Both the position numbers and the translations under genes were made by a program. Positions 5,180 through 57,998 of a stretch of 64,000 nt of DNA are shown piece after piece (position 1 is the first letter of the stretch; every line of letters starts with the position of its first letter). The notes beneath the pieces were generated by a model. The model searched no databases. It worked only from the letters and a program-made list of their open reading frames with translations, and was not told where the DNA came from. This stretch comes from Escherichia phage AnnaHegner_Bas87: the sequence record PQ850594.1. The stretch is one strand, 5' to 3'.

Positions 5180-5219
5180 TCGACAAATTTATTTTTAATA
5201 GTATAGGAGCTAATATAAC

Positions 5220-7688: not shown

Positions 7689-7697
7689 TAATGTATT
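7689..7697 (+). promoter_or_regulatory. phage promoter-like motif TAATGTATT
   Basis: variant of TAATGTATA motif, ~35 nt upstream of ATG 7731. Confidence 0.35.
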
Positions 7698-7730: not shown

Positions 7731-8477
7731 ATGGCAATGCCTGACGTTCAATATCCCATCAATACCTACGGATGGCTCAAGAAAGCTGTGTCCCTCTGGG
7801 CTGACAGGGATGATGATGAATTTGTTAATCAGATTCCAAACTTTATTAACTTTGCAGAGAAAGAAATCTATCGTAACTTACGAATTCCTCCTCTGGAAAA
7901 AGAAGTATATTTAGATATTAAAGATGGTGTGGCTTTTATTCCACCAGACTACTTAGAAGCTCAGTGGATGATGAGAGCAAGTAATGGACATATGTTCCGA
8001 GTAACTTCTCCAGAAGAGTTAGATTGGCTGAAAAGAAATAACTCAGTAAACCCAACTAACTGGAATCAGGGAGAAGTGAGTTTTACTAGGTTGGGAAGTC
8101 GGTTCCTGTTCTACCCAGCCATCAACGCTGATACTCCGGTCTACCCTGATGATGGAAGCCCTCTTATTCCAGCGGAGAATTCGGTAATTCTTAGCTATTA
8201 TGCAGACCCTCCGGAGTTTCATGAGGATTCTGATACAAGTGCAATTTTAACAATAGCTCCAGAGCTTCTTCTATATTTCACATTACGTCATGCAAGCTTA
8301 TTTGTCCAAGATGATAATGGGGTTCAGAAGTGGTCTGCTTTAGGGAAAGCTATTCTAGATGAGGTAGTTGAGCAGAGTAAGAAAGCTGAATACTCAGGCT
8401 CTCCTCTAGTTATTCCTAGAACTATTGACCGTCTTCACAGCTCTCGTGAGTTGTATGGAATCAAACACTACAGTTAA
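7731..8477 (+). CDS. hypothetical virion structural protein
   Basis: 248-aa ORF with AGGAGG RBS in structural block. Confidence 0.5.
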   Translation: MAMPDVQYPINTYGWLKKAVSLWADRDDDEFVNQIPNFINFAEKEIYRNLRIPPLEKEVYLDIKDGVAFIPPDYLEAQWMMRASNGHMFRVTSPEELDWLKRNNSVNPTNWNQGEVSFTRLGSRFLFYPAINADTPVYPDDGSPLIPAENSVILSYYADPPEFHEDSDTSAILTIAPELLLYFTLRHASLFVQDDNGVQKWSALGKAILDEVVEQSKKAEYSGSPLVIPRTIDRLHSSRELYGIKHYS

Positions 8478-21024: not shown

Positions 21025-22077
21025 ATGTCTCTTTTCGGTTCTGCTCCTAAATCTAAGACTACGGTAGCTCCGTCTTCTCAGGTTGATGCTCTTCTGAAAC
21101 AGATTGTAGCAAATGCTCAGGCTATGAATCAAAACGATCAAGGTTTTATTAATCGTAACATAGCAGGTTTTAATGAAAATCAAACAGCAGCTCTTTCTAA
21201 TTTAGCAAATTCTAACACACTCAACCAACTCAGTAAGATGTACACCCCTAGAACTCAACAAGGGTTGGACCAGATGAATGAGTTGGCTCAGAAATATCAA
21301 AACCTAGTTAATAAAGGTGGTATCACTGCTCAGGATGTTAATAATTTTAGCTCTGGATTGAATAGCTCTGCTTTAGCTAAGTCTACAGGTAAAGCTGCTG
21401 CTAATGTATCTCTTGGTAATGGTTCTGATTCAGGTTCTCTTAGACGTGCTGCTGCTCAAGGTGCTGCTCTCTCTTCAGCGAATACAAACCTTTCTCGTTC
21501 TATTCAAGGTAAAAACATGGGTGTTAGCAATCTTATGAATAACAACTCCTATCAGCAAGGTTTGCTCAATGCTCAATCGGGTCTAGCAAATCAGAATCTG
21601 AATCTAGGAGCTGCTGGGGTACAAGCTGGTCAACAGGCAATACAGAATCAGCTCACTGCTGGGAATCTTCAACAACAGCAAGATCAACTCCAAGCTAACA
21701 ACAATTGGGAGAATGCTATTGGCAATCAGCAGTATGGTTGGAATCAGCTTAACAACCAGCTTAATGTATTAAACTCAGTAAGCCCAATGGCTGGGTACAC
21801 CATTACTAACAAAGGTGCTGCCCCTAATGTTTCACAACAAATCCTTGGTGCTGGGGTTACTGGTCTTGGTATTGCTGGACGTCTAGGTGCTTTTACCCCT
21901 AATCAGCAAACTACTAATGCTTGGAACTCATACAATGCTTCTGGAGGTCAAGCTGGGATGGCTGGTCCTATGATTGGTGGCTCAAACCTGTCTCAACAGA
22001 ATGGTCAGAGCAACTGGTTATCTACCGCAGGAAGTAATATCTTAGGTGGTGTTCTAGGAGCCTTTGGAGCAAATTAA
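21025..22077 (+). CDS. Q/N/G-rich low-complexity virion protein
   Basis: 350-aa ORF; N-terminus MSLFGSAPKSKTT; poly-Q/N segments. Confidence 0.5.
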   Translation: MSLFGSAPKSKTTVAPSSQVDALLKQIVANAQAMNQNDQGFINRNIAGFNENQTAALSNLANSNTLNQLSKMYTPRTQQGLDQMNELAQKYQNLVNKGGITAQDVNNFSSGLNSSALAKSTGKAAANVSLGNGSDSGSLRRAAAQGAALSSANTNLSRSIQGKNMGVSNLMNNNSYQQGLLNAQSGLANQNLNLGAAGVQAGQQAIQNQLTAGNLQQQQDQLQANNNWENAIGNQQYGWNQLNNQLNVLNSVSPMAGYTITNKGAAPNVSQQILGAGVTGLGIAGRLGAFTPNQQTTNAWNSYNASGGQAGMAGPMIGGSNLSQQNGQSNWLSTAGSNILGGVLGAFGAN

Positions 22078-24762: not shown

Positions 24763-24771
24763 TAATGTATA
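24763..24771 (+). promoter_or_regulatory. phage promoter-like motif TAATGTATA
   Basis: exact 9-mer 37 nt upstream of ATG 24808; AAGGAG RBS between. Confidence 0.45.
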
Positions 24772-24807: not shown

Positions 24808-27800
24808 ATGGCTAATTTAAAATCGTGGGAAGAAGCTTCCAAAGCTCCTGCGTATCTGAATGCCTCTCCAGAGCAACAGGCTCAAATGAGAGAACAATAC
24901 AAGGCAGCAGGGGGCACTATTCCTGAGACTCAACCACAAGAGCAACCACAACAAGAAGAACGAGGTGTTATTGGGGAGTTTGCTCAAGGTGTGTCTAACG
25001 CTCTTCAATCAGGTGGTGCTAACATTGCAGCTAGTGCTGCTAAAGGTTTAGGTGGGCTGGTAGAGATTGGTGAAAACCTAACTGGTTCGGAAACAAGCTA
25101 TGGTAAGCGCATTCAAGAGAACTCTAAGCAATTGCTGGAAGAACGCTTATCTAAGATAGAAGATGGTTTTGGTAAAACAGCTGGTCAGTATGCTGGTGTT
25201 GCTGCTGATATTGGTTTGACAGTTGCAAACCCTGCTGTTGCTGCTGCTGTTATCGCAGCTCGTGAAACAGGTCGTGCTTATGCTGATCAAACTCCTAAAG
25301 AAGATGAAGATAAGTCAATCTTAGATGCTGCTCTTGTTGGTGGTGCTAACTACGCTGCTCAGAAGATACTTCCGGGCATGACTGGTACAGCTTCTACTAC
25401 TCTAGGTCGTGTAGGACAAAGCGTAGCCTCTAACGCGGTTGCTGGTGCTAAGGGTGGTGCTATTGTTGGTGCTGCTGAAGCTCAGAACAAATATGGAGAT
25501 GATACTACTCTAGCTAATGTCTTAGAAGGGGCTATTGAAGAAGGTGCACTCGGTGCCGCTTATGGTGGGGCGATTGGTGGGGTTCATGGGTTAATAAGTC
25601 GTCCTAGTCCTCAAGTGTTTGATCGTACTCCTGAGCATGTTAAGACTGACATTGCTGCTGAAGATGAGGCTATTCGTAAAGCTGCTAACGCTGATGAACT
25701 TCGTGAAGCCTATGCTAAAGCTGAGAATGCTAATGCTGCCTCTGCTTTAAACCTTCTGGATGAAAATGGTTTCCGAATCACAGATGCAGTTGCTATGGAC
25801 TCTCCTGCTGTTCAACGTATATTAAATACAGATCAAAATCGTGCAGAGAAGGCTGCTACGGTTCAGAAAGATAGTTCTAACGTTCCCGGTCTTAATCCTT
25901 TAGCTTCTCCTAAGAAGACTCAAGGTAAAGCTTTTGCGGACAACGAGTACAACCAGAAACAAGCTGTGGCAATGAAAGATGCAATGGCTGACTACACTAA
26001 AGATAACACCAAAGCCCTTACTGATGTTCTAGACAACCTAGACCGAGAGTTAGTAGCTCTGAGAGCAAGTGGTGATTTTACTGGTAGTGCTATTGACATT
26101 AAAAACCGTACTCAAGCTGATCGTGATTTTATTGATGCTTATAAAACTTTTTACAGTGAAGCTAATCGTTTCAAAGCTCGTGATGGTGAAGACCTAAACA
26201 ACTTCATTGATAAAGCTACTCAGTTGCAGAAGCTCTCTGAAAATGTTTCTCCAGAAATGAAGAAGGCCATTGGTGGATTAAAGAAACTAAAAGGTATGCC
26301 TGAAGGTTTTAACCCTATCCAAGATGCTTTCACTCTGAATAATACAGCTAAGTTCATGAGTAACCAAGACCGTGGTTGGACCTCTCTGACTGATGACGGT
26401 TTTCGTGAAGCTCCGGCTCCTGTGTTAGTTAAGAATCCTCTCGGTGCAGCCAAGTATGTACTTAACCGCTTTACTTCCGATCGTGCTCGTGCTCAACGTG
26501 AGAAGCAACAGTCAGCTAATAGTGAAGCTATCCGCTCTTTGGCTAGGGCTGATTTAGAAGTACAACGAGCTAGAACTCAGGCTGAAGAAGCAAGAGCAAA
26601 AATGGAAGAAGAACCAACTACAGAAGATATCAAATTCCGTACTCAAAATGATGCACCTTCCGAACCGGTTCGTGAGGAGCCTTCTGCTACTACTGTGACG
26701 GAAGAAATTCCTTCCTCTCCAGCTCCAGCTGAAACACCTCTTACTGCGAGGGATTTGGTTGCTCAAAGACGTGCTCTCCAACAAGCAGAGCTTAGACGTC
26801 AAGAAGCTGAAGCTGCTCAGGCTCAAGAAAGTGCTACATCAGAACCTGAACCACAGCAAGAAGCTCTTACAGCTAGAGAATTAGTAGCTCAGCGTAGGGC
26901 TGTAGCAGAGGCTAAGAAACGTCAAGAGGCAGAGGAAGCAGAACGTGCTAAAGAAGCTCCTGAGGAGGCCGTAGAAGAGCCTAAAGAGAAACCTGAGCCA
27001 TTACCTGCTCGTGCTCCTAAAGCTCCTGAGAAGGCTCCTGAGCCTGTTAAACCATCACTCGGTGTAGAGCGTCTGGCTTCTATGTCAACTGCTGCCCGTC
27101 AGGCAACAAAAGATCGTGCTGACCGATTTGCTCGTTCTTTGTATTCGGCTGCTGCTAAAGCTAAAGCTACTGCGGAAAACTTCCTTTCTTATAAAGGAGA
27201 CCCTAAAGAGCTTATGCGTCGTATCCGTCAGGAAGACCAAGCAAACAACACACAGCGTCATGAAGAGATGGCTAGAAACCAACTAGCTTCACAGCAAGGC
27301 ATTGCTTCTGCTAAATCTCAACATGTTCGTGCTTCTTTTGCTGATTGGGTGAAAGAACGTGGGTTGCCTTCTGATATTGCTACTAAGGCTTTACGGGCTG
27401 AAGAGAAAGGTTTAGGTGGGAACGTCACAAGTCTAGATTCACTGAAGCGAAGAGCTGAGCGTTTATATCAGAAACAAAGAGATGATGAGTTTGACCGTCT
27501 CTATAGAGAGGCTCTGGAAGAGAATAAAGCTTTTGATAAGAGAGATGCTCCTAAACTGGTAGACCAGAAGAAAGAGCTTCAGGATGAAATTGGTGCGTTG
27601 CTTGATGCTGAACCGTTACGTCCTGCTCAGAAAGATGCTATGCGTAGGATTATGGAAGACTTCGTGGAGAGCAAGTTTAAATCTTCAGAGAAAGCTGGAA
27701 GGGTTGAGGCTTTGGAAGTTGGTCAGATGAAGGATGTGTGGGATGGGTTTATTAATACCTATAACCGAGAAGTTAACATGTTCAACAAGGCTAACAAGAA

Positions 27801-29253
27801 TTCTCAATACGAAGCAGCAGCTAAACACTTGCAAGCACGTCAAGAACGTCTTGAGACGCTCCGTAACAGAGCTAAGGCTCGCAGTGATGCTAAGGCAGCC
27901 ATGGAGGCTGAGAAGCAGTCCTTGGAGGCTATAGCGGCTCAGAAATCAGAGATAGAGAAGATGTTCAAAGAATTGCCTGAAAGTGTCAGAGAGGCTCAGG
28001 AAGGGCGTACTTTGAAACAGCTTGCTGCTCACCATGATAAGAACTCTCCAGTACCACCGGAGCGTTTCCGTAGTATTATTGAACGTATCCACAACGCTGA
28101 GAGTGATTACCTCGATCGCAAACGTCGTTTGACCGAAGCAGAGGAAGATGCTCGTGAAGCTAAGTGGAACAGGATGTATGAACAGGCTGAGGAAATGAAC
28201 CGTAGGTTTGATATCGATGCTAGAGTGAAGAGAGATAAAGCTCTAAAGGAAGCTCAAGAACGAGAGAATGACTTAATGGCAGTTCAACGTCAGCGTGATG
28301 ACATTCATAAGCGTTTAGTCAATACTCTGGAAGAGAAGGGAGTTTCTAGGGAAGATGCTGAAGCGTATGCTGGGTCTTACATGGATAATCGGTATGCTTT
28401 GTTAGAGAAACCAATGACTCCAGTGGAACACCAGAATGCTCGTGCTCGTATTGAATCTGACGTAGAGAAGTTTGTTAAGAAATACGAAACAGCTACTCCA
28501 ATCGAAAGAGAGATCGCTAAAGCAACTGGTGATGTAGATGGGAAACCTTCTGACTTAGATGCAGAAACATTAAAAGCTATCGAAGATGCTCGTAAAGTTG
28601 ATTCCGATTTTAAGAAACTCTTAGATGAAGAGAAGGAAATGGAGAAGATTCGTTCAGCTCTACCTGAAGATGAAAGATCTCAGGCGAACTCTGATATTCT
28701 GGAAAGTATCAAGAAACAGGAAGATGATTTTGCTAGCAAAGCAGAGAAAGCTTTTATTGAAGGGAAGGATTTGCAGGAGTTAGCGAGTGTTGCAGAAGTT
28801 CTAGATAGGGTTCATGGTGCAGACAAGGCTGGTAACAACCGTCGATTTGTACGTGCTCTACAGACTGCTGCCGAGAACAAGAAACGTTATGGGGATAATC
28901 CAGTGGCTTGGTTTAGTGCTGATGATTACTCTGCTATTGCGAAACTTGGTGCTGCTTCGGCAGGTGGTAACAAATCTCGAGCACTTGAGAAAATCTTTGG
29001 TTCTACAGCAGAACAAGCTAAAGGGAAACTTTTAGGGCGGGATGATGTAGCTAAGATTAGGCGTGTGATTGAAGCGAATCCTAATGTTAAGATTCCTTCT
29101 TACAAGACAACTACTCGACAAGAGTACATGCAGTTCTTGGAGAAGTATAATGACGAGGGAGAGTTGAAAGTCAAACGTGGTTCTCTGTCTGACAAGTTGG
29201 AGAGAGGTAAGCGTCAAGCCAAACTCCGTGTTAGAGTTCGAGCTAAAGAGTAA
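24808..29253 (+). CDS. giant internal virion/ejection protein
   Basis: 1481-aa Ala- and charge-rich ORF with long helical regions; last gene of structural module. Confidence 0.55.
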   Translation: MANLKSWEEASKAPAYLNASPEQQAQMREQYKAAGGTIPETQPQEQPQQEERGVIGEFAQGVSNALQSGGANIAASAAKGLGGLVEIGENLTGSETSYGKRIQENSKQLLEERLSKIEDGFGKTAGQYAGVAADIGLTVANPAVAAAVIAARETGRAYADQTPKEDEDKSILDAALVGGANYAAQKILPGMTGTASTTLGRVGQSVASNAVAGAKGGAIVGAAEAQNKYGDDTTLANVLEGAIEEGALGAAYGGAIGGVHGLISRPSPQVFDRTPEHVKTDIAAEDEAIRKAANADELREAYAKAENANAASALNLLDENGFRITDAVAMDSPAVQRILNTDQNRAEKAATVQKDSSNVPGLNPLASPKKTQGKAFADNEYNQKQAVAMKDAMADYTKDNTKALTDVLDNLDRELVALRASGDFTGSAIDIKNRTQADRDFIDAYKTFYSEANRFKARDGEDLNNFIDKATQLQKLSENVSPEMKKAIGGLKKLKGMPEGFNPIQDAFTLNNTAKFMSNQDRGWTSLTDDGFREAPAPVLVKNPLGAAKYVLNRFTSDRARAQREKQQSANSEAIRSLARADLEVQRARTQAEEARAKMEEEPTTEDIKFRTQNDAPSEPVREEPSATTVTEEIPSSPAPAETPLTARDLVAQRRALQQAELRRQEAEAAQAQESATSEPEPQQEALTARELVAQRRAVAEAKKRQEAEEAERAKEAPEEAVEEPKEKPEPLPARAPKAPEKAPEPVKPSLGVERLASMSTAARQATKDRADRFARSLYSAAAKAKATAENFLSYKGDPKELMRRIRQEDQANNTQRHEEMARNQLASQQGIASAKSQHVRASFADWVKERGLPSDIATKALRAEEKGLGGNVTSLDSLKRRAERLYQKQRDDEFDRLYREALEENKAFDKRDAPKLVDQKKELQDEIGALLDAEPLRPAQKDAMRRIMEDFVESKFKSSEKAGRVEALEVGQMKDVWDGFINTYNREVNMFNKANKNSQYEAAAKHLQARQERLETLRNRAKARSDAKAAMEAEKQSLEAIAAQKSEIEKMFKELPESVREAQEGRTLKQLAAHHDKNSPVPPERFRSIIERIHNAESDYLDRKRRLTEAEEDAREAKWNRMYEQAEEMNRRFDIDARVKRDKALKEAQERENDLMAVQRQRDDIHKRLVNTLEEKGVSREDAEAYAGSYMDNRYALLEKPMTPVEHQNARARIESDVEKFVKKYETATPIEREIAKATGDVDGKPSDLDAETLKAIEDARKVDSDFKKLLDEEKEMEKIRSALPEDERSQANSDILESIKKQEDDFASKAEKAFIEGKDLQELASVAEVLDRVHGADKAGNNRRFVRALQTAAENKKRYGDNPVAWFSADDYSAIAKLGAASAGGNKSRALEKIFGSTAEQAKGKLLGRDDVAKIRRVIEANPNVKIPSYKTTTRQEYMQFLEKYNDEGELKVKRGSLSDKLERGKRQAKLRVRVRAKE
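26740..26991 (+). repeat. tandem 126-bp (42-aa) repeat inside giant protein gene
   Basis: LTARDLVAQRRALQQAE... / LTARELVAQRRAVAEAK... Confidence 0.4.
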
Positions 29254-31334: not shown

Positions 31335-31899
31335 TAATCCACTCTAAATCCTCAACTGCCTCTTCTACAGAACGGTCATTAAAGAGGAGGTAGGTTGGTA
31401 GGTTTGTTCCTTCAATATAAGAACGGGAGTCTCCTTCAAAGGAGCAGCCATCGCGGAGAATCTGAACTACTCGAACATGGAAGTGTTTCTCTAGTTCTTC
31501 AACTTCTGCTTTAAATCCACCATCAGAGAAGACGATAACATCATTCTGTGATGGGATACGTTGTTGAATACTGCTAACAGCAAGTTTACCCATGCAGGTC
31601 TCACCAAACATAGGCTTCAGGTAATTCTCGCTAGTTGCAATCATCAAGTCTCGAACTGACTTACCGTCCCATTCAGGACGGCTATGTTCTTTCCACTCAC
31701 GGTCGTTGTACAGCTCCATGAACTCGTAAAGAGGTAGACCTAATGCAGCAGCAGCCACTCGATACATAGGCTCCTTAAAAGCCTTTACATGCGGCCTAAA
31801 CTCGGTGTTACCAAGTGTTTTCTCTAACCAAGAATTAGCGATTGTATCTTTACCACAACCCGGTGGTCCATTCAGAATTACTACTAATGGTTTACTCAT
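31303..31899 (-). CDS. P-loop nucleotide kinase (dNMP kinase candidate)
   Basis: Walker A GPPGCGKDT at N-terminus; 198 aa. Confidence 0.5.
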   Translation of the reverse strand: MSKPLVVILNGPPGCGKDTIANSWLEKTLGNTEFRPHVKAFKEPMYRVAAAALGLPLYEFMELYNDREWKEHSRPEWDGKSVRDLMIATSENYLKPMFGETCMGKLAVSSIQQRIPSQNDVIVFSDGGFKAEVEELEKHFHVRVVQILRDGCSFEGDSRSYIEGTNLPTYLLFNDRSVEEAVEDLEWIIEGTRRGLYV

Positions 31900-32549
31900 T
31901 ATTGAATCATCCCTTGAAGATCTTCTTTATCAAAGTGCTTCTCTACTACCGCTTCATACAGATCACGATTCTCTGAATAACGACGATAGAAGGTTCCGTG
32001 TGAAATTCCCAACTCTTGCTGGATGTGATCATGTGGGATGCCGAGAAAGAGCATTGAGAACATGCTTGCCATCTTACGGTTTTCCATAATGTCACTCAGG
32101 TCTTGGAAGAAGAAAAAGATTCTAGATTCCAAGAACGGGTCTCCAGTAGAATCATGCTTATCCATCGCAATCTCTAAAGGACTTTCCCATGAATTCATCT
32201 CAGGAGGTCTAAACATATCAGCCTCTGGAATAGAGTAGATACGTCGGTCTCCAACTGTCTGACGATTAGAACGAATCGACCAGATGATATTCTTGACACG
32301 ATAAGTCATGTGCTCAATATCTTTTTCATCAGTGAGCAGAAGTTCTTCTTGCTTTGCAAATACAAAACGCCAAGCGTTCAGTAACACTTCCTGAGCAACA
32401 TCCTCTGCCTCGTGATAATCTTTAATGTCATACATAAAATACTTATGCACAACTTTCCAGTTCTCTCGATAAAATTCATCGAAGGTTGGATAATATTTAA
32501 TAGGAATGCCATGAATACGATAGCGTGTGGGTGTTGTCTTCTTCTTCAT
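31899..32549 (-). CDS. phage-encoded sigma factor (sigma-70 family, ECF-like)
   Basis: region-2-like ...[15 protein letters not shown]... and C-terminal HTH-like ...[17 protein letters not shown]... Confidence 0.55.
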
Positions 32550-32798: not shown

Positions 32799-33094
32799 TG
32801 TATTCCTCTCTCCTTGAGAGCTTTAAGTAAACCATTATGGTTAGCAGCACAGGTTGTATAATTATCCTGATACCACTCAAGTGTTGTTGCAAATGCCACT
32901 CCCTGTGCACTCTGAAGTAAAGGGAGGTCTACATCACATTCAGCTTTTAGGTTTGTTGGTAAGGGCATTAGCTGCCTGCTGTTGTCGCTCATTGAACAAG
33001 CCATCAAACTAGAAGCGAGCAAAATCACCAAACAACTCTTTTGCTTTTTCTTTGTAAGCATTTTCTGCACCTTCTTGAGTGCTATGATAACCAA
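32795..33094 (-). CDS. lipoprotein, outer-membrane spanin (Rz1-like) candidate
   Basis: signal peptide with lipobox LMAC; likely start at internal Met (33061); overlaps 3' end of HNH gene. Confidence 0.4.
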   Translation of the reverse strand: MVIIALKKVQKMLTKKKQKSCLVILLASSLMACSMSDNSRQLMPLPTNLKAECDVDLPLLQSAQGVAFATTLEWYQDNYTTCAANHNGLLKALKERGIQ

Positions 33095-33533
33095 GCCAAA
33101 TTACTTTGTTTTGATATCCGATACGAGCACTCCATTTATTAATATCTGACCTGTATCCTACACCTTTTATTCCAGTTAAAGAGTTCTTTTGAACTATTTT
33201 ATTGGCATTGTTGAGGACAGGTGTTGCTTTTCTTAGATTGCTCCAAGAGTTATTAGACTTATCTAAATCTTTATGGTCTATTTGGAAATCGGGAATTTCT
33301 CCAGTTTTTATATACCAAGCAACTCGGTGAGCTTTGTATGTCTTTCTCTGAAAATTCAATGTTACATAACCAGCTTTTGTTTTACACCCTGCAACCTTTC
33401 CTGCGAGTCTTGAGTTCCACTGAGCGCTCTTATCTTTAGAATGTTTCCAGTACAGAAGACCGGAAGCCTCGTCATAAGACAGATATTTAATTAATTCTTT
33501 AATTTCAGTGCCTCCGCTGCTTGTTGTTGTCGT
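33009..33533 (-). CDS. HNH-AP2 homing endonuclease; N-terminal region lacks a canonical start codon
   Basis: open frame reads ...LSYDEASGLLYWKHS...AGYVT-NFQRKTYKAHRVAWYIKTGEIP...IDHKDLDKSNNSWSNLR... then AP2-like domain; only in-frame ATG/GTG/TTG is TTG at 33359. Confidence 0.55.
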   Translation of the reverse strand, partial: TTTTSSGGTEIKELIKYLSYDEASGLLYWKHSKDKSAQWNSRLAGKVAGCKTKAGYVTLNFQRKTYKAHRVAWYIKTGEIPDFQIDHKDLDKSNNSWSNLRKATPVLNNANKIVQKNSLTGIKGVGYRSDINKWSARIGYQNKVIWLGYHSTQEGAENAYKEKAKELFGDFARF

Positions 33534-33890: not shown

Positions 33891-34631
33891 TTAGAATGGA
33901 GAGTCATCCTCTTCAAAGGTTGATTGCGGCTCTTCATTAATGGTAGGGATGCTTGGAGTAGCATCTTTCTGTTCAGTGTCAGAAGCTTTAGTAACTTCAC
34001 GACCAGCCAGAGGGATATTCTTAGCATCGTTAGCTTGAGTCAAGAGGCTACGTTGGAATGGGAAGATTGCTTGATAAGCAGCTAAGTTAGCGTCAGTCTC
34101 AGCATACGGTTCGAAGAAGATCAACTCACTACGAGGAGCACCTACCGCGTCACGATATTTAGTCGGGATTGGAGTGATGCTTTTAATGGAGTTTTTCTTC
34201 TCACCAGCTTTGTTTACATAGGAATTAACCAGAATGTTAACAGGCTGACCTAACAGCATATCTTTAAACCAACCCAAATCACCTTTCAGTGCTTGAACAC
34301 TTGGGTCGATCATTTTAATCAGATTTAGAATACCAGAGTTCTTAGCTCGTGGATTTACATCGAAAGATTTAAACTGGCAAGCAGGACGAGGGTCCAGAGG
34401 TTTGCCTTCATTATCAGTCCCTGTTGCATCTACGCCAATCAGCTCAAAAGCTAAGTCCATACGGAAAGCTGGATTCTTAGGAGTAACTGCTTTGGTTTTA
34501 GGGTCAATCCAAGGGTCACGATTGTGAACACCCAAACCTACAACACGAACAATACGTGCTTCGTACTCACCATCAGGGATTACATCGTAGTTGGATTTAC
34601 GGGATACAGACAGTTCAGGGATCATAGACAT
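33891..34631 (-). CDS. ssDNA-binding protein candidate (acidic C-terminal tail ending in Phe)
   Basis: 246 aa; C-terminus ...STFEEDDSPF resembles SSB/gp2.5-type tails; otherwise unverified. Confidence 0.4.
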   Translation of the reverse strand: MSMIPELSVSRKSNYDVIPDGEYEARIVRVVGLGVHNRDPWIDPKTKAVTPKNPAFRMDLAFELIGVDATGTDNEGKPLDPRPACQFKSFDVNPRAKNSGILNLIKMIDPSVQALKGDLGWFKDMLLGQPVNILVNSYVNKAGEKKNSIKSITPIPTKYRDAVGAPRSELIFFEPYAETDANLAAYQAIFPFQRSLLTQANDAKNIPLAGREVTKASDTEQKDATPSIPTINEEPQSTFEEDDSPF

Positions 34632-34690
34632 ATTAATATTTCCTTATATAGATTTAAGATTGTTGCTCTCTTTGAGCGGTTTGTATACTA

Positions 34691-34699
34691 TATACATTA
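34691..34699 (-). promoter_or_regulatory. phage promoter-like motif TAATGTATA (minus strand)
   Basis: ~60 nt upstream of start 34631. Confidence 0.4.
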
Positions 34700-34761
34700 C
34701 ACTTATACAGATAAGGTTCTATTATACTATAACCTTTTTGGTAGTAGATAATGACAAGTAG

Positions 34762-34770
34762 TAATGTATA
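34762..34770 (+). promoter_or_regulatory. orphan plus-strand copy of TAATGTATA motif in ORF-free region
   Basis: no plus-strand ORF downstream; faces antisense to phosphatase gene. Confidence 0.3.
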
Positions 34771-34964
34771 TATGGTATAGCTAGTAAAGCTATTGCAGGC
34801 TTGTATATTGGGCAATCATTGTAACCCTTGCAAGTACCGAAGGGCAGGAGACACCTGCGAGATAAAAATAGAGAATTAAGGAAATCCTTGATTTAGGTTG
34901 AGGACTCCTAGGACTTTGATTCTCTATTAAAATCAAAAGAAAACTTAACTTAAAACAATAACTT

Positions 34965-35603
34965 CTACCATTCTAAAAGACCTTTAAAACTAGTTTGTTC
35001 TACTGTTCTCTGATAAGGTAAGTTAGATTCTGCTTGTTTGCTTAACATCTCTTGTACTTTATCAGTAATTGGATAATCTTTTTGTAATAAAGAAGCTATC
35101 CACTCTTTCCTACTTTCCAGTTCTTTTCTAATCTCTTGCAGAGACACAGCTTTGTAATCAATTTGTTCCATAGAGGTACAAAAATATCTCCAATCTTTGA
35201 TAGTAGAGTTATGAGTATGAGCATAGATATTATACTTTCCTCTCATTTCATCAGAGTGAATAGGAATATGAGTTACCCAAAATTCTTTGTATTTATAATC
35301 ACCACTGATGTGTCTAAAGACTTTCATCATATCAGGGAGAAGTTCTAATCTGTCATGATTTCCTAAGACAAGATGTTTCTCTCCCTTTACTTCAGCGATA
35401 ATATCAAGTGCATATTTCTCAAACACCCAATCACCTGTAAAGAAAGTTTTATCACGTTTAGTAACATGGTCGAACGCTGCTAAGATAGCTTTGTCATGTT
35501 CTTCAATACTACTAAACTTCTTTCTAAAATTACAGATGTTACGATGGCCTAGGTGACCATCACCTGCAAAATAAACTTCAGCCATTCTCGTATGTGTCCT
35601 CAT
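34965..35603 (-). CDS. metallophosphoesterase (Ser/Thr phosphatase-like)
   Basis: GDGHLGH and LVLGNHD motifs of calcineurin-like phosphoesterases. Confidence 0.65.
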   Translation of the reverse strand: MRTHTRMAEVYFAGDGHLGHRNICNFRKKFSSIEEHDKAILAAFDHVTKRDKTFFTGDWVFEKYALDIIAEVKGEKHLVLGNHDRLELLPDMMKVFRHISGDYKYKEFWVTHIPIHSDEMRGKYNIYAHTHNSTIKDWRYFCTSMEQIDYKAVSLQEIRKELESRKEWIASLLQKDYPITDKVQEMLSKQAESNLPYQRTVEQTSFKGLLEW

Positions 35604-36664: not shown

Positions 36665-37057
36665 TCATCGTATCACCAGAGGCTCTTCAGAGTATACAGG
36701 AGAGGCTATTTCTACCGGAGGTGCTGCTCTAAGGTCATTAAGCCTTACGCCCTTCAGCATACCATCTAGGTGGTCCATTTTAGGGATACCTACAGGGAAG
36801 TCATCAATCCAAACATCCACAAAGAAACCCAAGCTCTGAGTGACGGAATCCTTCTGAACACCGTTGCAAAAGATAACAGGAATATCTAGACTTGCTGCAT
36901 CTGCTAGAAGCTCCTCATTTGAATACCCATTGGGTTGAGCAAAACGATAGGTGACAATACGTACGTCATGTCCACGAGATTTCATAAGACCTACAATGTG
37001 GGTCCACATCTCTTTGTCCACTGTAAAAGTATCATCATAATCTAAACCAATATTCAT
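36665..37057 (-). CDS. HAD-superfamily phosphatase (nucleotidase candidate)
   Basis: N-terminal MNIGLDYDDTFT = HAD motif I DxDxT. Confidence 0.5.
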   Translation of the reverse strand: MNIGLDYDDTFTVDKEMWTHIVGLMKSRGHDVRIVTYRFAQPNGYSNEELLADAASLDIPVIFCNGVQKDSVTQSLGFFVDVWIDDFPVGIPKMDHLDGMLKGVRLNDLRAAPPVEIASPVYSEEPLVIR

Positions 37058-41039: not shown

Positions 41040-41052
41040 GTATACATTATGT

Positions 41053-45980: not shown

Positions 45981-46311
45981 CCCCTTCTAAGTTAGTTGAA
46001 TTAGCTACATTACGAGCAATGTTATCCATGACCTGCTGGGTAATAACAATGCAATTCTGTGGGTCTACAGACTTAGAACGCCCCATTTCAGGGTCATAAA
46101 CCTTAACACGCTTGGCTGTTGAGCCAGTAACTTGCAACACTTTGAGAAGATAACCTTGGTTTCCAATAGACCATGCAACAACATCACGATTCTTGATATA
46201 ACGACCAAGCATATCACGATGATAGAACTGCTGCATAACTTTAGCTTTGCTAATCTCTTCAGATGGCGGGGCCACTTTACTCAAATCTAACATAACTCTC
46301 TCCTGTTTCAT
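45964..46311 (-). CDS. hypothetical protein
   Basis: 115-aa ORF. Confidence 0.4.
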   Translation of the reverse strand: MKQERVMLDLSKVAPPSEEISKAKVMQQFYHRDMLGRYIKNRDVVAWSIGNQGYLLKVLQVTGSTAKRVKVYDPEMGRSKSVDPQNCIVITQQVMDNIARNVANSTNLEGDAPNA

Positions 46312-46330: not shown

Positions 46331-46339
46331 TATACATTT
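46331..46339 (-). promoter_or_regulatory. phage promoter-like motif (AAATGTATA, minus strand)
   Basis: ~20 nt upstream of start 46311. Confidence 0.3.
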
Positions 46340-46363
46340 GAGAGTTATCATATCTACTACCAA

Positions 46364-52027: not shown

Positions 52028-52213
52028 TCATTCTACTTCGAAGTGTTTGATCACACCAGTCAACACATCAGATTGGAATGTACCCACTAGCTCTGTACCT
52101 CGGAAGAAGTTAACACTTGTTCCAAGTGATTCAAAGCGATCTGCTTGAATGTCCAGAGATTGAATATTTCCTTCTGCTGACATTGTACGAAACATGATTG
52201 TGTATTTATTCAC
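52028..52213 (-). CDS. hypothetical small protein
   Basis: 61-aa ORF in cassette. Confidence 0.35.
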   Translation of the reverse strand: MNKYTIMFRTMSAEGNIQSLDIQADRFESLGTSVNFFRGTELVGTFQSDVLTGVIKHFEVE

Positions 52214-52452
52214 AGACTTGTTACTCCCTTATCTGCTTGTGCAATTGCGATGATACGCTCAGCACATTCCATTGAATATTTATCACCTCGTTTGAGGAAG
52301 GTGATGATTGCAGAGAACTGATTACCAATCATTCTCTTATTTGTGATACCGAACTCTTCACAGAGTTGGTTGATAGCTTTACGAGAGCCTACAATCAGAG
52401 GCTCTTTTTCTTCGGTCATTCCACGGCTGATCAAATCTTCGATAGACAACAT
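52210..52452 (-). CDS. hypothetical small protein
   Basis: 80-aa ORF in cassette. Confidence 0.35.
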   Translation of the reverse strand: MLSIEDLISRGMTEEKEPLIVGSRKAINQLCEEFGITNKRMIGNQFSAIITFLKRGDKYSMECAERIIAIAQADKGVTSL

Positions 52453-56274: not shown

Positions 56275-57375
56275 TTACAGTAGTCGTTCTAATTGCATTT
56301 CCAGATGGTCTGGAATATAACCAGTGACGTTATCATCACTGCTACCTGATTCACGCATCAATGCAAACATGTGACGAATTTCACGAACCGTTGCGATTCG
56401 AGTGCTTTCAATCTGAGGGGTGTAGTAGGTCATGATCTCTTCGTAGACACTGTTGGCATTACCGCGCACATATCCCAAGAAACCATAGAAGTCATTCATA
56501 TCACGTAAGTTGATAAGGACTTCACCATCAGGGCCAGTCTGTTGCACACGAACACGACCAACCAAAGTCACAGATTGCTCACGACAGAAGAGAATATCAC
56601 GAGCAAGACGATACCCTTCAGTGAGATCACTGTCTCTTGGAGTATAGTCTAGGGGTAGATGTTGAATCATAGGAGCGAAGCGCAGCTCATTCAACTTCTC
56701 AACATAAGCTTCATTGTCTAAATCTGCATATTCAACAGCCAGTTTCTTGAGAACCAAGAAGCGGTTGACCAGATTCAGAAGTTGGCTCTTTTTCCACTTC
56801 GGCTCTGAGATACGGAACTCAACAGAACCAAATTGAGATAGAGGCAAAAGATTAAGGGAGGTATATTTATCCCAGCTATTAACAAGAGAGTGGAAGAAAG
56901 CTTCCCCGTCTCGGTTGAACGCTGACGAAGCATTCATAACTTGTGCTTGAACGACAGCAAAAGCTGGACAGAAGTTGCTACGATAGCGATGGTATCCAGA
57001 ACATTTGAACATCATCTTTTCATAGAACGTCCATCCAAGAATAACTTTCTTAAGGATGTTACTATCAGCGTCACGCATATCCATATGAACATGAGTGGAG
57101 CAGCGCCAAGTTCCCTCGGCTCCAGAATCCTGTACTGCTTCACTCAGATTGTTAATAGCACGAAGTAATTCTTCACCGTTGTAAGGTCGTGCACATACTA
57201 ATTCACAACCATCACGAAGAGAGCCATCTTCAGTACAAACCCACATATCAGCGTCAATGTCAGTTGTACCTTCGACTTCTAACTCAATACCAACACCACA
57301 CTGAAAAGCAATACTTGGATGCGGTTCAGATAAGCGAGGGTTACGGTATCCAAAAACTTGTGCTACGGTTGTCAT
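56275..57375 (-). CDS. GS-like carboxylate-amine ligase (amidoligase) candidate
   Basis: 366 aa with ...WRCSTHVHMDMRD... (HVH motif); adjacent to second such gene. Confidence 0.45.
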   Translation of the reverse strand: MTTVAQVFGYRNPRLSEPHPSIAFQCGVGIELEVEGTTDIDADMWVCTEDGSLRDGCELVCARPYNGEELLRAINNLSEAVQDSGAEGTWRCSTHVHMDMRDADSNILKKVILGWTFYEKMMFKCSGYHRYRSNFCPAFAVVQAQVMNASSAFNRDGEAFFHSLVNSWDKYTSLNLLPLSQFGSVEFRISEPKWKKSQLLNLVNRFLVLKKLAVEYADLDNEAYVEKLNELRFAPMIQHLPLDYTPRDSDLTEGYRLARDILFCREQSVTLVGRVRVQQTGPDGEVLINLRDMNDFYGFLGYVRGNANSVYEEIMTYYTPQIESTRIATVREIRHMFALMRESGSSDDNVTGYIPDHLEMQLERLL

Positions 57376-57998
57376 AATGATTCCACCAACTCTACATTAT
57401 ATGATGACAGGTCTGAAGAAATATGCTTGAACTTCTCCAGAAGGTTTAAAGATTGACGACCATTGTCGCCATAACCAGCTTCAAGAAGCACGTTTCCAAC
57501 GTAAGCCCCTTTGTAATAAACTTTTCCATCGACAGGATTGATATAGATGAAACGAGTAACCAACCCTTCAAACTCTGGATTAAACAGGTTGTACACCAAA
57601 TCACCCGGAATCGAACGTCCGAGAGAAGGTGGAGTACCACGAAGTTTATTCCCCATCAAGCCTTTAGCTCGCTGACGAACAGGGTTGATATGGGTCCAGC
57701 TCACCATGTTATTACCATGCTGAAGGTATCCTACATCTGGAGACTCCAGAATGAGGCTGTGATCAAACACTGGGATATTACTAACAATCTGACGTTCAAA
57801 CTGACCTTCGGAGTTTTTAGTCCAGCGTTCCGCCTCAAACACTAAAGACATTTCAGCGTCGTGTGAGTAGTCGTCAATATCAAAGTTACCTTGCTGACGA
57901 ACATCAAGCACATATAGAGGGAGGTTTTTACCATCAGGTGATCGCTGGGCAATCCATGTTCCACAATAATAGTGTTGAAAATCTCTTAACAAGCTCAC
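57372..57998 (-). CDS. hypothetical protein (cassette member)
   Basis: 208-aa ORF overlapping neighbours by 4 nt. Confidence 0.45.
   Translation of the reverse strand: MSLLRDFQHYYCGTWIAQRSPDGKNLPLYVLDVRQQGNFDIDDYSHDAEMSLVFEAERWTKNSEGQFERQIVSNIPVFDHSLILESPDVGYLQHGNNMVSWTHINPVRQRAKGLMGNKLRGTPPSLGRSIPGDLVYNLFNPEFEGLVTRFIYINPVDGKVYYKGAYVGNVLLEAGYGDNGRQSLNLLEKFKHISSDLSSYNVELVESL

Follow-up and report, generated by a model that had tools for sequence, protein, structure and literature searches.

A gp36-type sigma factor in Escherichia phage AnnaHegner_Bas87, its predicted promoters and a candidate seventh promoter directed at a conserved non-coding element

Phage sigma factor systems related to that of AnnaHegner_Bas87

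Coliphage phiEco32, the closest described counterpart of the system considered here, encodes its own sigma factor, gp36, which assembles with Escherichia coli core RNA polymerase into a holoenzyme and recognises a TAATGTATA-type element (PMC8948821; PMC12276001). The subject of the present analysis is the gene located at positions 31899-32549 (minus strand) of a 64,000-nt stretch of DNA from Escherichia phage AnnaHegner_Bas87 (PQ850594.1), together with the putative promoters read by its product; the whole stretch is referred to below as the window. The first-pass annotation of this sequence, which had described the phiEco32 system correctly, proposed that the phage redirects host RNA polymerase by means of its own sigma factor. 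This proposal is supported by orthology, contact residues, synteny and the presence of a gp79 orthologue, and we consider it very probable (at roughly 93%) that the window carries a gp36-type sigma system, which would direct Escherichia coli core RNA polymerase to middle and late promoters.

In phiEco32, six gp36-dependent middle/late promoters have been mapped, upstream of genes 6, 13, 26, 40, 58 and 68 (PMC8948821). They share the consensus tAATGTAtA, with transcription initiated 6-8 bp downstream (PMC8948821; PMC12276001), and are not of the -10-only type, as essential contacts at -37 and -34 are present in the 2025 cryo-electron microscopy structure 9m7y; the gp36 holoenzyme has been shown to use one of the six, P26, in vitro (PMC12276001). 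A second phage protein, gp79, displaces region 4 of sigma-70 and stabilises the gp36 holoenzyme and open complex (PMC12276001). Every sequence-testable defining feature of the phiEco32 gp36/gp79 system (Pavlova et al. 2012 as cited in PMC8948821; PMC12276001, PDB 9m7y and 9m7z) was found in the window, i.e. a sigma factor of 80% identity with unchanged -10, -35 and clamp-helix residues, a gp79 of 76% identity, syntenic promoters and the same genome layout.

Another known phage sigma factor, gp47 of Salmonella phage 7-11, has the same genes around it, a gene 40 homologue on one side and an exonuclease gene on the other, and drives late genes located at similar genome positions. However, it shows only about 15% identity, its promoter is bipartite, GTAAtg-(16)-aCTA, and phage 7-11 has neither a gp79 homologue nor a middle class of genes nor host shut-off (PMC8948821). 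It also lacks the long spacer upstream of gene 40 that in the window contains the candidate promoter and non-coding element discussed in the last section. Gene 40 corresponds to phrog_6599. In the distant Grimontviridae/Lahexavirus relatives (7-11, GAP52, J3S, LAh_8 and PKM.Lu.22.1) the gene 40 homologue lies immediately upstream of the sigma factor gene, with the exonuclease following; this pairing is therefore older than the gp36/gp79 system. Phage T4 offers a more remote parallel, since its gp55 is likewise a highly diverged late sigma factor, which with the aid of a small co-activator redirects the host core polymerase to a short -10-like element found specifically at phage late genes. T4 late promoters (TATAAATA) have no contact at -35 and require the sliding clamp via gp33. 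In contrast, a -35 contact is made by gp36, whose helper, gp79, evicts sigma-70 as well.

The window itself represents a phiEco32-like podophage of the Gordonclarkvirinae. Megablast analysis matched it to 98 phage records, the best being Escherichia phage Bas86 (96%), followed by PAS59 and SU7 (94%). SU7, EK010 and ECBP2 are classified in the Gordonclarkvirinae, genus Suseptimavirus, while the sister genus Kuravirus has phiEco32 as its type member. The analysed phage thus differs from phiEco32 in belonging to the SU7/ECBP2-like genus-level lineage (Suseptimavirus), and also in the details of its sigma factor and P13 promoter given below. The window opens with the large-terminase ATG, and the overall layout is that of phiEco32: the structural (late) genes run rightward up to about 29.3 kb, beyond which the replication and nucleotide-metabolism (middle) genes, and then the early genes, run leftward.

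The sigma factor and its partner gp79

The open reading frame (ORF) of 216 codons, which the first-pass annotation had placed at 31899-32549, is exactly as described, with an ATG start on the minus strand. By homology and contact residues, its product is the gp36-type sigma factor of a phiEco32-like coliphage. It matches PHROG phrog_1740, 'RNA polymerase sigma factor' (E = 1e-43), and chain F of PDB entry 9m7y, i.e. phiEco32 gp36, deposited as 'RNA polymerase ECF sigma factor' (E = 1e-117, 80% identity over residues 1-215). A tblastn search against the phiEco32 record EU330206 gave the same identity at 100% coverage. The two proteins are distinguished by a two-residue insertion after residue 118 and by the substitution M138L. 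An orthologue is found in all 98 related phage records, and in several deposited phages it is 100% identical. Its annotation is inconsistent: in many relatives (SU7, IME267, PAS59, ECBP2 JX415536) it is a 'hypothetical protein', while elsewhere it was deposited as 'chromosome segregation protein' or 'RNA polymerase sigma-H factor'.

The contact residues of gp36 listed in PMC12276001 were mapped onto the window protein, and 23 of the 24 proved identical. All five acidic residues of the clamp helix (D44, E47, E49, D50 and E54) are retained, as are the eight residues that stack on or form hydrogen bonds with the bases of the -10 element (E79, H80, Y83, R84, W90, S91, S94 and N95). The same is true of the two -35 contacts, Y186 and R187 (numbered Y188 and R189 in the window protein), and of the four residues of the gp79-binding groove (F146, M164, L167 and I169). 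The sole change, M138 to L, falls in the groove for the flap-tip helix (M138, I142, F166, L167 and F204), where four of five residues are identical.

A gp79 orthologue of 80 amino acids is encoded at 52210-52452 on the minus strand. It is 76% identical to phi32_79 and matches chain G of 9m7y with E = 5e-37; in the alignment, residues L6, L9, V10 and M14 of the hydrophobic N-terminal helix correspond to I, L, I and M in the window protein. The switch needs gp79, which was omitted from the first-pass annotation, and that reading is corrected here.

Predicted middle and late promoters

The six promoters P6, P13, P26, P40, P58 and P68 are located in the phiEco32 record at 1677+, 9101+, 26014+, 36632-, 42937- and 46862-, respectively, and all six have already been predicted in ECBP2, a phage of the same genus as the one analysed here (Table S3 of PMC8948821). 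The equivalent of P6 would lie outside the window, upstream of the small-terminase region. All five positions that fall within the window carry the motif, in synteny with P13, P26, P40, P58 and P68 and at nearly equal distances from the start codons.

Two of the predicted promoters would serve late genes on the plus strand. The P13 equivalent (7689-7697), with the copy TAATGTATT that sets it apart from phiEco32, is located in an intergenic gap, 33 nt ahead of the ATG at 7731 (34 nt in phiEco32); its predicted start is at about 7704, and AAGA occupies -37 to -34, as in phiEco32 P13. The P26 equivalent (24763-24771) is an exact TAATGTATA, again with AAGA at -37 to -34. It precedes the 1481-aa gene 24808-29253 by 36 nt, versus 39 nt in phiEco32.

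The other three would serve middle genes on the minus strand. The P40 equivalent (34691-34699), an exact TAATGTATA, is placed 59 nt from the start codon (60 nt in phiEco32) and heads an operon extending from gene 33891-34631 through to the sigma factor gene. The P58 equivalent (41041-41049) is also an exact copy, preceded by GGAA at -37 to -34; it is located in the 44-nt gap between a phoH-like gene and the gene 58 homologue, at a distance from the start codon similar to that in phiEco32. The P68 equivalent (46331-46363) is composed of AAATGTATA at 46331-46339 and an upstream box, TTGGTAGTAGATA, at 46351-46363, and is followed at about 38 nt (40 nt in phiEco32) by the ATG at 46293, which has a Shine-Dalgarno sequence.

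Positions were numbered with AATGTA at -14 to -9, as in PMC12276001. In this numbering, the bases of P68 at -37 and -34, contacted in that study by R187 and Y186, are G and A, which confirms the register. An A at -34 combined with a G at -35, -36 or -37 accompanies all six intergenic sites and only 2 of the 33 other occurrences of AATGTA, but as the pattern was defined post hoc we treat it as supportive only.

The main alternative is that the motif consists of chance AT-rich words or ordinary promoters of the host sigma-70, and that the ORF plays no part in their recognition. When the whole window was searched with a background model, as the first-pass annotation had suggested, the exact 9-mer TAATGTATA was found four times (24763+, 34691-, 34762+ and 41041-), a fivefold excess over the 0.73 copies expected that was reached in none of 100 dinucleotide shuffles. 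The 8-mer AATGTATA occurred eight times versus 2.17 expected. All four exact copies (binomial P ~2e-6) and five of the eight AATGTATA copies (P ~5e-6) are intergenic, where intergenic denotes the approximately 4% of the window without an ORF on the coding strand. Also against this alternative, the copies occupy the syntenic positions of promoters that experiments have mapped in phiEco32 (PMC8948821), and the window protein retains every residue by which gp36 reads AATGTA. In favour of it, sigma-70 promoters have been predicted for some of these spacers in the genome paper on SU10 (PMC4281155), and the count of copies with one mismatch, given below, is in the chance range. Taken as a whole, we find this explanation hardly credible.

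According to the scheme that we favour, the early genes would be transcribed by the host sigma-70 holoenzyme. The phage sigma factor, like gp79 a middle-gene product, would then bind the E. coli core through the acidic helix of its sigma-2-like N-terminal domain and recognise, within AATGTA at -14 to -9, the AAT as duplex and the G in its flipped state, while its compact sigma-4-like C-terminal domain would touch the bases at -37 and -34; initiation would be expected 6-8 bp downstream of the 9-mer. The gp79 orthologue would push region 4 of sigma-70 off the polymerase and clamp the phage sigma factor on, with the result that host and early transcription would be shut off and middle and late transcription boosted. 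The predicted targets are the two late plus-strand sites (7689 and 24763) and the three middle minus-strand sites (34691, 41041 and 46331). As the sigma factor gene belongs to the operon of the P40 equivalent, positive feedback would be established once expression has begun, the sigma factor reinforcing its own synthesis from this promoter. The initial expression would presumably come from read-through of upstream transcripts.

Several points weigh against this scheme. Firstly, profile searches by themselves give no assignment of the protein to the sigma-70 family. The first-pass annotation had described segments resembling regions 2 and 4 of sigma-70, but in Pfam the Sigma70_r2 profile matched residues 26-61 only, with 19.1 bits (E = 0.0011) against a cut-off of 24 bits, and Sigma70_r4 gave no match to the protein; region 2 is therefore weakly visible and region 4 undetected. 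Family membership follows from the solved structure of the orthologue and not from the profiles. Secondly, core binding and the start sites 6-8 bp downstream are carried over from experiments on phiEco32 only, whereas identity, contact residues, synteny and motif placement were read directly from the sequence. Thirdly, when one mismatch is allowed, 26 copies of the motif are found versus 17.9 expected, a number reached by 3 of 100 shuffles and thus in the chance range, so that the signal lies in the exact copies and their placement. Fourthly, not all of the six sites listed in the first-pass annotation stand: 7689+, 24763+, 34691- and 46331- are correct and '41031-' is a 10-nt slip for 41041-41049, but the sequence at 5197, TAATaGTATA, has at least three mismatches in any 9-mer register and is devoid of the contiguous AATG read by gp36. 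Finally, a search directly ahead of the sigma factor gene for a sigma-70 promoter of the kind reported in SU10, which could account for its initial expression, gave no convincing candidate. As regards position 5197, phiEco32 has the same non-matching sequence there, and no promoter has been mapped at it.

The protein also invites comparison with the bacterial group IV (ECF) sigma factors, which are likewise small and composed only of sigma-2-like and sigma-4-like domains (PMC12276001). In contrast to this overall likeness, the best bacterial ECF structure, SigL (6dv9), was matched with E = 0.43, the Pfam results are as given above, the C-terminal domain of gp36 binds the flap-tip helix differently (PMC12276001), and no anti-sigma factor is evident. 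'ECF', as applied to this protein in many GenBank records, is a nominal label and not a demonstrated membership.

The copies with one mismatch located within genes (1212+, 8851+, 19410+, 21402+, 57391- and others) are present in a chance number, and with the exception of 21762+ they lack the signature at -37 to -34. The copy at 57391-57399 (minus strand), TAATGTAGA, is a variant seen in phiEco32 P6; it has TTTC at -37 to -34, lies within the 3' end of the upstream ORF, and, with 15 nt separating it from the start codon of gene 56275-57375, is too near the ATG, so that it is probably a chance occurrence. The copy at 21739-21770 (plus strand), in sense orientation within the late gene 21025-22077, consists of TAATGTATT with GGAA at -37 to -34 and recurs at the equal codon position in phiEco32 (23028) and in Bas86. 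Over the 31 nt from -37 to -7 it shows two differences from phiEco32, while the whole gene is 73% identical. It could act as an internal promoter of the ejection-protein genes that follow, or simply reflect a conserved peptide, YGWNQLNNQLNVLNS.

Among the spanin-like genes, an ORF at 33009-33359 (minus strand) encodes an HNH endonuclease. Many close relatives match the surrounding 4 kb in two pieces, with about 15% missing, and in Bas86 the Rz-like spanin is annotated as two joined pieces around the HNH gene. This ORF looks like a mobile insertion; Rfam detected no group I intron in this region.

A candidate seventh promoter and the conserved element downstream of it

An exact TAATGTATA overlooked in the first-pass annotation is located at 34762-34770 on the plus strand. 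Together with an upstream TTGGTAGTAGATA and an 11-nt spacer it constitutes a candidate seventh gp36-type promoter, Px (34738-34770), situated in the 333-bp spacer 34632-34964 back to back with the divergent P40 equivalent and pointing away from any ORF. There are just two copies of the 13-mer TTGGTAGTAGATA in the window, in Px and in the P68 equivalent, each 11 nt before the 9-mer, and Px shares the G at -37 and the A at -34. The same arrangement exists in phiEco32 at 36704+ (about 36680-36712). In relatives, for which phage records and metagenomes supplied 17 distinct sequences, the two boxes are retained and the spacer varies in sequence but not in length; the arrangement persists even in the ES17 lineage, despite its rearranged P40 side. 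The copy at 34762 is not a stray word, because the upstream 13-mer and its spacing are shared with P68 and are kept in phiEco32 and the relatives.

In one metagenome contig (ERZ1034915), TAATGTATA of Px is replaced by TAATATATA, with loss of the -11 G read by gp36 and with the downstream element otherwise intact; the cause is a natural down-mutation or else a mistake in assembly. Px does not figure among the six promoters listed in PMC8948821 (Table S3), PMC4331800 and PMC4281155, these being later papers that restate the six and not the primary reports of 2008 and 2012. One of these three papers searched only the strand in the coding direction.

Directly after Px, starting at the predicted transcription start (34777), lies a conserved non-coding element of 151 nt (34777-34927, plus strand), a candidate structured RNA, whose counterparts in relatives measure 154-182 nt. 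It is 92% identical to that of phiEco32, compared with 76% for the sigma factor gene, 80% for gene 40 and 73% for a late gene, and its last ~95 nt are almost invariant among the 17 distinct sequences. The middle module is swapped between a short and a long version, yet independent minimum-energy folds of the two variants arrive at the same three-domain architecture: a 5' hairpin, a long-range helix (UUGCAGG/CCUGCGA) enclosing the variable module, and, after an A-rich linker, a long 3' hairpin. In the 5' hairpin (ATAGCT-AGTAA-AGCTAT), which occupies the very 5' end of the element, two pairs show compensatory double changes. The z-scores of the folds are modest, ranging from -1.9 to -3.3.

A coding role was rejected: no ORF of at least 25 aa is common to the relatives, phiEco32 has none in any frame, and single-nucleotide indels occur among the relatives. 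Nor does it correspond to a known RNA. Rfam 15 gave no hit in the whole window at the gathering threshold, and a permissive scan of 34400-35300 gave at best E = 1.5 (18.7 bits versus a cut-off of 41.2 bits), while ARAGORN identified neither a tRNA nor a tmRNA. Mimicry of a host sequence was rejected, as blastn against 5,426 E. coli genomes yielded no match. Pattern scans of viral and metagenome sequences for distant copies returned only the same phage group and one chance hit, and the syntenic spacer in 7-11, GAP52 and the Proteus and Aeromonas relatives is only 50-100 bp long. A role as a CsrA sponge is not supported by the four AGGA/AGGGA motifs, whose weak enrichment was noticed post hoc (P = 0.03-0.13). 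Complementarity to possible antisense targets in trans within the window is at chance level, the longest matches being two 12-mers, both on non-sense strands.

The reading that we hold most likely is that the element is a non-coding RNA driven by gp36: a seventh gp36-dependent promoter, a near twin of P68, would produce a structured RNA of 150-180 nt restricted to the Gordonclarkvirinae, and no protein gene would be served. As a prediction from sequence it is put forward tentatively, with chances that we judge to be somewhat short of even. Such an RNA would possibly be regulatory, act as a replication primer, or serve as an antisense partner for the processing of read-through minus-strand mRNA.

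Alternatively, the element might function on the other strand, by causing the termination or processing of minus-strand transcripts that come from the upstream middle and early genes, just before P40, in which case TAATGTATA at 34762 would be incidental. A scan for the intrinsic terminator consensus found none on either strand. By eye, the minus strand offers an A/U-rich 10-bp stem (AUAGAGAAUU/GAUUCUCUAU) followed directly by UUUUUAU, and its fold has a z-score of -2.6, while the plus strand has nothing terminator-like after the element, only UAUU(U)AAAA following the stem. On the other hand, this stem contains just two G-C pairs and encloses a 43-nt insert, and the plus strand folds better (z = -3.3). 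Moreover, the G.U pairs, legal on the plus strand only, become A.C mismatches on the minus strand: this concerns 8 of the 17 sequences in the 5' hairpin, one in helix 4, and an invariant U.G of the long stem. They argue against a purely minus-strand role. A terminator would also leave unexplained both the ~95 invariant nucleotides and a promoter in which two boxes are kept while the spacer drifts, and we regard it as unlikely.

A third explanation is that Px, together with the AT-rich stretch 34928-34964, forms a transcription-primed replication origin, with the conserved sequence acting as a DNA or R-loop element instead of a free RNA. The arrangement is suggestive, since a phage-specific promoter is directed into an ORF-less stretch and then into a tract that varies in sequence among relatives yet stays AT-rich. 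It may be likened to the primary origin of T7, a phage promoter with an AT-rich sequence, and to the R-loop origins of T4. The phage also encodes its own DNA polymerase and primase-helicase. Against an origin, selection on RNA structure is indicated by the covariation in the 5' hairpin and by the fold that the short and long variants share, and the GC skew here simply tracks the direction of transcription. An origin therefore appears improbable to us, and the non-coding RNA under gp36 control is retained as the preferred reading.

The sigma factor, gp79, their promoter system and its structure have already been published and identical proteins are deposited, so that this part of our findings is known; Px and the non-coding element may be the sole part that is new. 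The main finding is a renewed identification of a takeover switch that is already well studied, in a further isolate of a phage group used for therapy and phage-defence screens, and its practical value is a correct annotation, given that many deposited relatives still bear the label 'hypothetical'. If Px is active, the transcription map of phiEco32 would be incomplete, and a conserved non-coding RNA would be under the control of a phage sigma factor. With a known sigma factor, a known activator and a product of about 150 nt, such a system, if confirmed, would provide an easy experimental entry into a little-known class of phage RNAs.

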